This document shows, one piece after another, positions 12,001 to 15,000 of a stretch of DNA of 64,000 bases. Origin of the DNA: a virus (Duplodnaviria > Heunggongvirae > Uroviricota > Caudoviricetes); the IMG/VR virus record IMGVR_UViG_2925908680_000007, positions 3,851 to 67,850 of that record. One strand, given 5' to 3'. How positions within the stretch are numbered: position 1 is the stretch's first letter; each line of letters begins with the position of its first letter. A program made the position numbers.

Positions 12001-15000
12001 ACCCGGGCGAGTCCCTGCTCAGAATGCATTCCGTCGCCGAATGCATCGTTGCCCACCTCTTCCTTCCCCGTCTCCTCCCCATCGAATCCAGCGGCCTCCT
12101 CCTCCCATTCCGCCAGACGCTGCTCAAGATCGGCTTTTGAACCTGAAATATCTGCTTCACGCCCCAGAATCACTGCCAGTTCCTGCAAACGTTCAGTCAT
12201 CTGCTCTTTCGTCATCACATCTCTCCCGTGCGCTAAAGAAAAAGGCGGGAATATCCCGCCCCGTCTTATTTCACCTGAACCACCACAAACGCATCCGGAT
12301 CCGGCAGCACCATCAACGGCGCAGACTGCGTCATGGTATATTCGCAACCAGGATCCCCCACTTCCTCCCAGTGTTTCGGATAACGAATCGCAGAGGTGAT
12401 CCCTTCACTCAGCGCCTGATTATCCTGGATTGCGCCATAGCAACGGACGCCCTCCGCCTGAGTGTTTCCCAGAATCAGTGTACCTTCCGGCAGATAACGC
12501 TGTTCATCCCCGTTTTCGTCAACATACGTTGTCTTCGCCACCACGACAGCCAGATCGCCGTACCAGCCCTTAAAGGAAACCACGGAACCCAGGTCTTTCA
12601 GTGCGGTTTCCAGCTCAGATTTGGAGCCACGGCGGGTATCCAGTTTTTCACGGAACAGTTTAAAACCGTTCAGCATACGCCAGACCGTGCCGTCCATAAT
12701 CGCGATATTGATGGTACCGGAAGCAAAATCGCAGTACGCATCAAGATCATGCGTCGGATCAAAGGTGTCAGCATTCTGCTTTGACCATTCGCGTCCGCCA
12801 GCCTGCGTAATGTTATTGGCGGCAGAACGCCCAAAATCCACTTCCACCGTCTCAAACTGCTCGCCGCTCATAGTGTATTTACCCTGCAGAACAGCACTGA
12901 CTGCCTGCATTTCTTCCACCTGCACAATCGCCTGCTCTTCCTGTTTCAGGTTGTCCGTCAGAATACGCAGACGGCGGTAAGCCGGGTCATTAAGGCGGGC
13001 CGGATCTTCCCCCGGAAGACGTTCTACAGCCTGCTGATAATCAAAGCGGTGTTTTGGTTTTACATAACCGGGACGTAACACGCGGGTTTCACCACCACGG
13101 CTGCGCAGCACTTTGCCTGACACCACCGGAGACACATACGCCGCAACCGGTGTTTTGCCGGTAATTTTATCCAGCATGACTTCCTGAGTATGGAAAGTGA
13201 TCGTGCGACGAAAGAACAGCTCAAGAAACAGCGCACGAAATTTCACTTTCTGCTCGGTGTACCCGAGTAACTGACGCGTGGTAAATAACCCCATAATTTA
13301 TTTTCCTTCAGAAACACAAACGGGCCGCATCGCGACCCGTTTTTTCAGTTAATCACTTCACCATCAGGCGTGGCTGATGGCACTTCCCACAAATGCGTTG
13401 GCTTTTTTCACCGCATCCACCGAACCAGGCCAGACCAGCGACTCAGTGGCAAACGTACCGCTTTTGTAGTACGTCAGCATGGGCTCGGTCCCGGCAAGCG
13501 CCAGAGCCAGCACACCCACAGCCGTTCCGGCTTTCTGACCATCCCAGACAACCAGTTTTCCGGTGGCGTCATCCACCATCAGTGGCGTCAGTGCAGGTGT
13601 GGCAGCACTGATACCACTGGTGGCTGTTGCGGTATGCGCCGGATCGCTTCCGGCAAAAATGCGCACATCTGCACGCTTTTCCGTGGTGGTTTTAATCATT
13701 TTTCAGCCTCCTGATTTATCTGAATTCCGGATATCGCTTACGGCATACTCATCAGCAGGTCTTCCTCCCCGCGCCCGGCAGTTCCGCCACCGGAAACCGC
13801 ACTGGCAGCATGCTGTGCCATAAAGCGATCAAAAAGTGTTTCCTGTGACGGTTGCGATGCCGCCGGCGCGGCTGCCAGCAGCGTTTTCGCCTGCGCCACC
13901 GTCATTCCCGGTTGTTCTGTCAGTGCCTGTGCAAGTTGCTCGCGCCCTTTTGCCTCCGGCAGCGCCATAATCTGATCACCGACACTTGCAGAACCCGCAA
14001 CCGGTGCCGCCGCCAGTAACGTTTTGGCCTGGTCAACGGTCATTCCCGGCTGTTCAGCCAGCGCCTGCGCGAGTTGTTCACGCCCTTTTGCTTCCGGTAA
14101 CGCCATAATCTGATCGCCTGTGCCTGCAGCACCGGCAGCAGGGGCTGCCGCCAGAAACGCTTTCGCCTGCTCCACCGTCATCCCCGGTTGACCTGCCAGC
14201 ATCTGTGCCAGTTGCTCACGCCCCTTTGCTTCCGGCAGCCCCATAATCTGATCACCTGTATTTGCCACACTGGCAGCAGGCACAGCAGCCAGGAACGCTT
14301 TCGCCTGCTCTACCGTCATTCCAGGCTGACCTGCCAGCATTTGCGCCAGTTGCTCGCGCCCTTTCGCCTCCTGACAATTCAGGATCCCCATCACGCGCTG
14401 ATTTTCCTGGGCCACCGCTTCAGCAACGGTGAGATTTTTAACAGTCATTGCATTCTCCTTCGTAACAGAGTCATTCAGTGCAGAAACCATCACTTCAACG
14501 GCATCTGCAGCATTAATCAGTTGATCAGCCAGACCTGCATCAATGCCTGCCTGACCGTCATAAACGGCAGCCTCGGTATTCATCACCGCCTCTGAACTCA
14601 GCCCCGTATAAAGCGCCACCTTGTCGACAAACATCCGGCGGGCCTCATCAATACGGCGCTGAAAATCTGCACGCACACCTGCCGGCAATGCCTGAATACT
14701 GTTGCCATCAACCTTGTGCTGCCCGGAGTAAATCAGCGTGATGTCCACCCCTTCCTGTGCCAGTTGTTTCTCGTAACTGGCGTGCGCCATCATCACGCCA
14801 ATCGAACCAATTTTTGCCGTCTGCGTGACCAGCCGACGGGTACAGGCTGCCGCCAGCAACATGGCGGCTGAACAGGCCATGTCATTACACAGCGCCCACA
14901 CGGGCTTCTGTTCCCGCAGACGGTAAATCATGTCAGCGCAGTCAAACGCCCCGGCAGCCTGACCGCCCGGGCTGTCGATATCCAGCAAAATGCCGCGCAC

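Follow-up and report, generated by a model that had tools for sequence, protein, structure and literature searches.

Why would a phage head gene carry the same short protein segment four times over? The question is raised by a 64,000-nucleotide (nt) stretch of a Caudoviricetes genome (IMG/VR record IMGVR_UViG_2925908680_000007, positions 3,851 to 67,850; hereafter the window, in whose coordinates positions are given), in which a gene for a lambda-gpC-like head protease contains, in the part corresponding to the lambda scaffold Nu3, four tandem in-frame copies of a 46-amino-acid (aa) unit. We consider it likely that the array represents four copies of the Nu3 core module, carried both by the scaffolding domain of an S49-family protease and by a nested scaffold protein, and acting there as interaction units.

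Layout of the array

Tandem Repeats Finder reports a single array (13865-14371; period 138, 3.7 copies, 79% matches, no indels, score 566), and the strength of the repetition is far beyond chance. It resolves into four in-frame units of 46 aa (138 bp) at 13843-14394 on the minus strand, corresponding to aa 321-504 of 538. The gene and its parts are as follows.

13738-15354, minus strand: gpC-like prohead protease/scaffold fusion gene, 538 aa plus stop, ATG start (open reading frame, ORF)
14485-14919, minus strand: S49 peptidase domain, aa 146-290 (Pfam envelope)
14455-14460, minus strand: internal Shine-Dalgarno (SD) sequence AAGGAG, 6 nt upstream of the nested ATG (read from the sequence)
13738-14448, minus strand: predicted nested Nu3/gp6-like scaffold, 236 aa, in frame and co-terminal with the protease (positional homology, PHROG)
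14257-14394, minus strand: repeat unit 1, VMGILNCQEAKGREQLAQMLAGQPGMTVEQAKAFLAAVPAASVANT, aa 321-366
14119-14256, minus strand: repeat unit 2, aa 367-412
13981-14118, minus strand: repeat unit 3, aa 413-458
13843-13980, minus strand: repeat unit 4, aa 459-504
13741-13842, minus strand: non-repeated C-terminal tail of 34 aa (ETLFDRFMAQH...EDLLMSMP), common to lambda, phage 21 and Gifsy-1

Units 2-4 share the consensus GDQIM(G/A)LPEAKGREQLAQ.L..QPGMTV.QAK..LAAAP, followed by a variable linker of about 7 residues, while unit 1 begins VMGILNCQ and opens VMGILNCQEAKGRE in place of GDQIMxLPEAKGRE. Across the four units 26 of the 46 columns are invariant, and pairs of units differ at 32-53 of 138 nt (23-38%) and at 7-18 of 46 aa. 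The linkers between units, rich in Ala, Gly, Ser and Pro (e.g. AAAPAAGAAGTGDQ), are the least conserved portion. A preliminary, sequence-only reading had placed four tandem in-frame 138-bp repeats within 3 nt of these coordinates, and that layout stands; the motif it quoted describes units 2-4 and not unit 1, and its remark that each copy carries only a few substitutions does not hold for the DNA, where 32-53 of 138 nt differ between units. The Dam site GATC lies in the matching place within each of units 2-4 (13974, 14112 and 14250, 138 bp apart), with others at 13827 and 14383; its recurrence probably derives from the Asp-Gln codons GAT CAG and is incidental.

Authenticity and selection

Differences between units fall mostly on synonymous sites. 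In the conserved core (codons 8-39, Nei-Gojobori method) the synonymous rate between copies (dS) is 0.67-1.52 and the nonsynonymous rate (dN) 0.03-0.15, giving dN/dS of 0.02-0.19, and the longest exact nucleotide run common to two units measures 17 nt. In a comparison of the window with an 87%-identical lineage, dN/dS is 0.19 in the four units and 0.29-0.36 in the flanking parts of the gene. Purifying selection maintains every copy.

The same array is widespread in Escherichia coli. A 1,201-nt probe across it matched 108 of 5,426 complete E. coli genomes, with a single place covering at least 80% of the probe in approximately 99 of these; in each of the listed rows at that coverage the span was 1192-1203 nt, which corresponds to four units, at 87-100% identity. 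The exact 538-aa protein is recorded on 199 contigs, and its 90%-identity cluster has 826 distinct members, of which those listed are all from E. coli and the full-length ones nearly all 538 aa long. Many database entries read 'S49 family peptidase, partial' and lie on contigs ending in or beside the repeats; the array evidently breaks short-read assemblies. It might therefore be asked whether four copies arose by expansion or mis-joining of a shorter repeat in the genome assembly, the artefact named at the outset as what would undo the observation, but the copies are individually distinguishable (23-38% nt differences, no exact run above 17 nt) rather than near-identical as collapsed or expanded assembly repeats would be, and because they have diverged and some 99 independent complete genomes share the layout, with the identical protein on 199 contigs, this explanation is vanishingly improbable.

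A head protease with a predicted nested scaffold

Identification of the gene as a head protease, already proposed from the sequence, is borne out by database comparison. The 538-aa protein matches Peptidase_S49 (PF01343, E=2.9e-33, 115.5 bits against a cut-off of 24.9) and PHROG 53 'head maturation protease' (E=2.5e-217); a match to TIGR00706 SppA_dom (E=3.8e-31) falls under its equivalog cut-off, and RefSeq names the identical protein sequence 'S49 family peptidase'. Identity is 67% to phage 21 gp5, with values of 64% for the Gifsy-1 gpC homologue, 56% for lambda C and 55% for N15 gp5, and an alignment of these four with the window protein retains many invariant columns in the protease domain, including S162, H191, K214 and D216. 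The gene also occupies the position of a lambda gpC/gpNu3-type gene, with a lambda-family portal on one side and gpD-like and gpE-like genes on the other. By these comparisons the N-terminal part of the product is a lambda-gpC-like S49 (SppA-like) prohead protease.

The remainder of the protein is predicted to be made a second time on its own. An in-frame internal ATG at 14448 (aa 303 of the protease, reading MTVKNLTV...) lies six nucleotides beyond the AAGGAG, and the protein that would start there matches PHROG 8399 'head scaffolding protein' (E=4.3e-51, four matched stretches). All seven sequences compared (the window, lineage alleles L066 and L068, phage 21, Gifsy-1, lambda and N15) have at the homologous site a GGAG-type SD sequence followed 5-8 nt later by an ATG. 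In phage 21 GenBank annotates the start of gene 6 plus a ribosome-binding site there, and in N15 the site is annotated as an 'internal in-frame translational start within gene 5'; the search for an internal start suggested by the sequence-only reading thus leads to an AAGGAG-N6-ATG homologous to the annotated starts of phage 21 gp6 and N15 gp6. The protease codons overlapping the SD sequence vary among relatives (KENA, QEET, REVN, GGT...) while the SD sequence itself is kept, and because it is retained although the overlapping codons differ, the internal start site appears to be in use. We predict that a nested 236-aa scaffold holding all four units is translated from this SD sequence and ATG.

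The repeat unit in lambda-type phages

In alignment the unit corresponds to the conserved core of lambda Nu3, as expected from the earlier placement of the repeats in the region matching Nu3. The first modules of the five phages share 22 invariant columns, to which the tail adds M512, G523, L534 and P538. The homologous head gene sets carry from one to five copies.

Lambda: 1 unit, after a Ser/Thr/Ala/Asp-rich spacer of ~45-55 aa; nested scaffold of 131 aa from the conserved SD and ATG
N15: 1 unit, similar spacer; nested scaffold of 137 aa
Gifsy-1: 3 units, no spacer; nested scaffold of ~197 aa
Phage 21: 3 units, no spacer; nested scaffold of 200 aa
Window: 4 units, no spacer; nested scaffold of 236 aa
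Five-copy allele (STEC005 group): 5 units; nested scaffold of 282 aa

The lambda record J02459 annotates an earlier Nu3 start, giving 201 aa. The suggestion that the region might vary in copy number is thus realized in nature, with one copy in lambda and N15, three in phage 21 and Gifsy-1, four in the window lineage and five in the STEC005 group.

It is important to note that repetition of the module is already annotated in phage 21. The GenBank record of the phage 21 head operon (M81255.1) carries inside gene 6 three repeat_region features, named 'Tri1 box', 'Tri box' and 'Tri3 box' and described as 'function unknown; putative'. In the searchable literature on Nu3/gpNu3 and phage 21 prohead assembly we found nothing on the repeats; our account of the Tri boxes is taken from the GenBank features. 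The four copies described here, and the five of a sub-lineage, are a further variant of that arrangement.

Phage 21 is also the closest known system in other respects. It shares with the window the gene order of portal, S49 protease with nested scaffold, decoration and capsid, a nested SD and ATG at the same site, and tandem in-frame core modules within the nested scaffold gene followed by the same C-terminal tail, the whole protein being 67% identical. It has, however, three copies and not four, and these are 53-58% identical to one another, against 69-94% among the window copies; the three positionally orthologous copies of phage 21 (Tri1, Tri2, Tri3) are not what the window gene contains, and the window prophage has in addition a P2-like contractile tail and stx2e. 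The Gifsy-1 prohead protease STM2605 (NC_010392.1) has the same architecture at 64% whole-protein identity, but three copies rather than four, more diverged from each other; three-copy proteins of this type are found also in Shigella, E. albertii, Trabulsiella and Providencia. Lambda gpC/gpNu3 (J02459.1) resembles the window gene in its S49 protease, co-terminal nested scaffold, related tail and flanking B, D and E homologues, yet its one module, IMGILNCEEAHGREEQARVLAETPGMTVKTARRILAAAP, follows a spacer that the window lacks, and C has 439 aa against 538. N15 gp5/gp6 (NC_001901.1) likewise has a nested scaffold with SD and ATG at the homologous site, and differs in its one module and longer low-complexity spacer.

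Distribution of the module

A profile of the four units, searched against 1.84 billion cluster representatives (E<=0.001), matched 423 of them. Most of the 150 matches listed have a single copy, either some 80 residues before the C-terminal end of a protein of 400-550 aa or in a stand-alone or nested ORF of 100-200 aa, and the only full-length multi-copy representative is P0123 (505 aa, three copies, phage 21/Gifsy type). Species-representative genomes contain 40 one-copy loci, a count inflated by many lambda-like contaminant contigs in unrelated taxa, five three-copy loci (E. coli, Shigella, E. albertii, Trabulsiella, Providencia) and no four-copy locus. In no deposited phage genome does coverage of the protease gene reach 80%, and the allele is therefore without a cultured reference phage.

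Positions I4, E9, A10, K11, G12, R13, E14, L16, A17, L20, A21, M26, A31 and L35 are near-invariant in 259 non-redundant units; these residues make up the hydrophobic core and the conserved charged EAKGRE stretch. A single module is fused to a ClpP-type protease in a metagenomic phage (L070:5001-6038) and to an S49 protease in a distant proteobacterial metagenome-assembled genome (L074:467-1693), with HDPD and Phage_cap_E genes directly after in both. Because it is found behind both kinds of protease, the module accompanies lambda-type capsid genes and not one protease type, and module and protease type have been shuffled independently. Stand-alone proteins of 163-199 aa with two modules occur in Bradyrhizobium and on a related metagenomic contig (L072:5001-5492, L075:5001-5600); the small phage-like element that holds them encodes, downstream of them, a 297-aa protein without family match and a tape-measure protein. 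There are no recognisable lambda-type head genes near these two-module genes, and their gene context is uninformative.

Gain, loss and conversion of units

In-frame duplication gave rise to the array, and unequal crossing-over and gene conversion continue to reshape it. A five-unit allele of 584 aa is present in four complete E. coli genomes (STEC005, STEC367, STEC307 and STEC306). In STEC005 (L066:2740-4494) its protease part is 98% identical to the window, its units 4 and 5 match window units 3 and 4 at 99% and 96% of nt, its units 2 and 3 share 96% identity, and conversion has brought the 3' half of its unit 1 to that sequence as well; the pattern is that of a recent duplication accompanied by gene conversion. 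In the 87%-identical four-unit lineage (L067, E. coli JNEC-KY180) units 2 and 3 share 91% identity and are each similar to window unit 3, which indicates gene conversion here as well. The JNEC-KY180 allele (L067:1741-2721) is annotated as a pseudogene, its N-terminus gone, and since it adjoins genes for a DNA-binding protein and a transposase-domain protein, this copy lies in a disrupted prophage. Contraction may be represented by two phage 21-like sequences, P0053, with two units and a junction exactly as a Tri1/Tri2 crossover predicts, and P0045, with a partial deletion; each comes from one short contig and is weak evidence.

Older events can be read from comparison among phages. Units of phage 21 and Gifsy-1 correspond position by position (core identity of 72%, 78% and 61%, compared with 47-61% for paralogues), and because they do so the triplication predates the split of those phages. 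Window units 2-4 are 81-94% identical to each other in protein and 79-82% in DNA, above their identity to any phage 21 or Gifsy-1 unit, and a clear positional partner exists only for window unit 1 (78% core identity to phage 21 unit 1); one-to-one matching, with units this short, assigned no phage 21 orthologues to window units 2-4. Since units 2-4 are most alike among themselves, the internal units of the window were expanded or homogenised separately.

Predicted structure

An AlphaFold2 model of the nested protein (61-sequence alignment) has a mean predicted local distance difference test (pLDDT) of 77 and a predicted template modelling score (pTM) of 0.33. Each unit is modelled as three helices, the short first one separated from helix B by a turn and helix B from helix C by a loop, in blocks with pLDDT of ~80-90, and confidence drops at the linkers; in the tail there is a helix over ETLFDRFMAQHAA (nested residues 202-214), the last 20 residues having low confidence. 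For a single unit modelled alone (72-sequence alignment) pLDDT is 80 and pTM 0.55, the helices spanning residues 2-5, 14-21 and 28-37. The unit is thus predicted to be a self-folding three-helix module of ~38 aa (short helix, EAKG turn, helix B, QPGMT loop, helix C), and, because pTM is low where local confidence is high, the modules would be independent of one another, joined like beads on a string by flexible Ala/Gly/Ser-rich linkers of ~7-8 residues.

Neither by sequence nor by fold was a relative found in the PDB, and to our knowledge no structure of Nu3 or its relatives exists. Pfam DUF732, T2SSK and Bac_DNA_binding pass their cut-offs on the nested protein only by summing four weak copies; few or no single stretches pass, and we read these matches as a generic helix-loop-helix pattern rather than homology. 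The scaffold of P22 (gp8 type) has a C-terminal helix-turn-helix domain that binds coat protein, and exits intact rather than being proteolysed. The functional analogy, in that a largely flexible scaffold bearing a small hairpin-like helical element is removed after assembly, would hold for the array, although in the P22 type the binding element is single and terminal, not tandem. No sequence or fold similarity to a P22/phi29-type helix-turn-helix scaffold domain was detected.

What four modules might do

Lambda Nu3 is reported to associate with itself, to interact with C, E and B, and to be degraded by gpC before packaging (PMC3224144). We hypothesize that the repeated modules are the protein-interaction units of the scaffold, candidate partners being other scaffold or protease chains, the gpE-type capsid protein and the portal. 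Extra copies would raise the valency of the scaffold and its reach inside the procapsid, and would take the place of the long low-complexity spacer that stands ahead of the single lambda or N15 module. Once assembly is complete the scaffold would, as in lambda, be broken down by the S49 protease, and the Ala-rich linkers could also hold the cleavage sites of this enzyme.

Several points weigh against this proposal. Use of the internal start is deduced from sequence conservation alone, and the two-copy variant depends on one 1.6-kb contig that could be an artefact. The prophage is ~46 kb including IS66 (in strain U90, see below), near lambda and phage 21, and because its size is so close to theirs the four copies come without an obviously larger head; the benefit of four copies over one is thus left unexplained by capsid size. 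Lambda Nu3, moreover, is described as largely disordered in solution, and if so the helices that AlphaFold predicts with confidence may form only on binding.

It is tempting to go further and to regard copy number as an evolvable 'valency dial', in which arrays repeatedly expand and contract (1-5) by unequal recombination and so retune procapsid nucleation/fidelity, for example after the joining of a foreign tail or a move to a new host, the synonymous divergence between copies being itself selected because it would shield copy number from RecA-mediated deletion; we regard this as speculative and rather doubtful.

Among other explanations, the linkers could be the point of the array, providing S49 sites every 46 residues at which the scaffold would be cut to exportable peptides. 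Their Ala/Gly/Ser/Pro-rich composition (AAAPAAGAAGTGDQ and similar) and low pLDDT would suit such a periodic cleavage cassette, as would the reported degradation of Nu3 by gpC before packaging in lambda (PMC3224144), but no other part of the unit is as poorly conserved as the linkers, and conservation of the folded core would be left unexplained. We think this unlikely as an alternative; it is in any case compatible with modules acting as interaction units, and does not exclude them.

That the array supplies length or flexibility only, as a ruler or disordered linker whose sequence and copy number drift neutrally, would accord with similar genome sizes, with scaffolds that range from 131 to 282 aa, more than two-fold, in phages whose capsid, portal and protease genes are homologous, and with the unrelated low-complexity spacer found in lambda and N15 where others carry extra copies. 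A neutral spacer would nevertheless decay as the inter-unit linkers do, whereas each copy keeps its near-invariant residues, including the charged EAKGRE surface, and the core has dN/dS of 0.02-0.19 with synonymous sites near saturation; a passive role is accordingly quite unlikely.

Alternatively, the GDQIM ATG of units 2-4, preceded by GGTGATC, might provide extra starts and hence a ladder of three-, two- and one-module scaffolds. GGTGATC is complementary to the 3' end of 16S rRNA, and GGTGATCAGATTATG opens units 2 and 4 of the window and units 2-4 of the five-copy allele. Unit 3 of the window, however, has GGCGATC, Leu exceeds Met at unit position 5 across the family (L122 vs M93), being also the residue in Gifsy-1 unit 2, and the motif is accounted for by the codons for Gly-Asp-Gln-Ile-Met. 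We rejected an extra start at each unit's ATG because Met is not conserved there, and a ladder of isoforms is very unlikely.

Finally, the 138-bp periodicity might serve the DNA rather than the protein, through regulator binding, antisense promoters or Dam sites, and here the pattern-matched 'CII binding site' features of phage 21 gene 6 and the GATC at the same position in units 2-4 could be cited; but the pattern TTGYN6TTGY is absent from 13700-14500 and occurs 13 times in the whole window against 15.6 expected, conservation is at the amino-acid and not the nucleotide level, and GATC follows from the Asp-Gln codons, all of which makes a DNA-level element highly improbable. The phage 21 features (OL657228.1) are two in number, on the antisense strand of scaffold gene 6 (L002:2509-2522 and 2743-2756); CII-type sites in the window array were discarded as candidates, the pattern being absent from 13700-14500.

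Prophage setting

Tandem Nu3-core modules acting as interaction units thus remain our preferred account of the array, which belongs to an Stx2e-converting prophage of E. coli with a hybrid virion module. A lambda-type head set (11850-19600), with homologues of Nu1/A/W/B/C-Nu3/D/E/FI/FII, is joined directly to a P2-type contractile-tail set (1-11900), with homologues of V, W, J, I, fibre, sheath, tube, tape measure, X and D. The stx region lies at 22898-24139 on the minus strand. The window is identical to strain U90 at positions 1-38933 and diverges from 38934, where U90 has an IS66-family element inside a DUF4222 gene that is apparently absent from the window. In U90 the prophage adjoins ssrA. 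Neighbouring head genes and the stx2e region are listed here.

17125-19083: large terminase gene, gpA-type domains
15344-16915, minus strand: lambda-family portal gene, directly upstream of the protease gene (Phage_portal_2 E=1.9e-95, TIGR01539 E=1.3e-172)
13364-13699, minus strand: gpD-like head decoration gene, directly downstream (HDPD E=2.1e-22)
12266-13294, minus strand: gpE-like major capsid protein gene (Phage_cap_E E=7.8e-66)
22898-23161, minus strand: stx2eB (RefSeq annotation of the strain identical to the window up to 38933)
23174-24133, minus strand: stx2eA (RefSeq annotation; A subunit, Pfam RIP E=2.8e-29)
24224-24300 and 24402-24477: tRNA-Arg(tct) and a CAT-anticodon tRNA (RefSeq: Ile), just upstream of stx2e

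Significance

The practical value of the array is modest. It could be a typing marker for Stx2e prophages, whose short-read assemblies it breaks, and nanoparticle platforms based on lambda that employ Nu3 and gpC might use its modular design. Its interest lies rather in head assembly itself, of which, in lambda-type phages, scaffolding proteins are the least understood part. The lineage shows the conserved Nu3 core as a self-contained module, and the occurrence of that module at one to five copies, in phages whose capsid, portal and protease are otherwise homologous, amounts to a natural allelic series that could be used to ask what the module binds and how its valency affects procapsid assembly.

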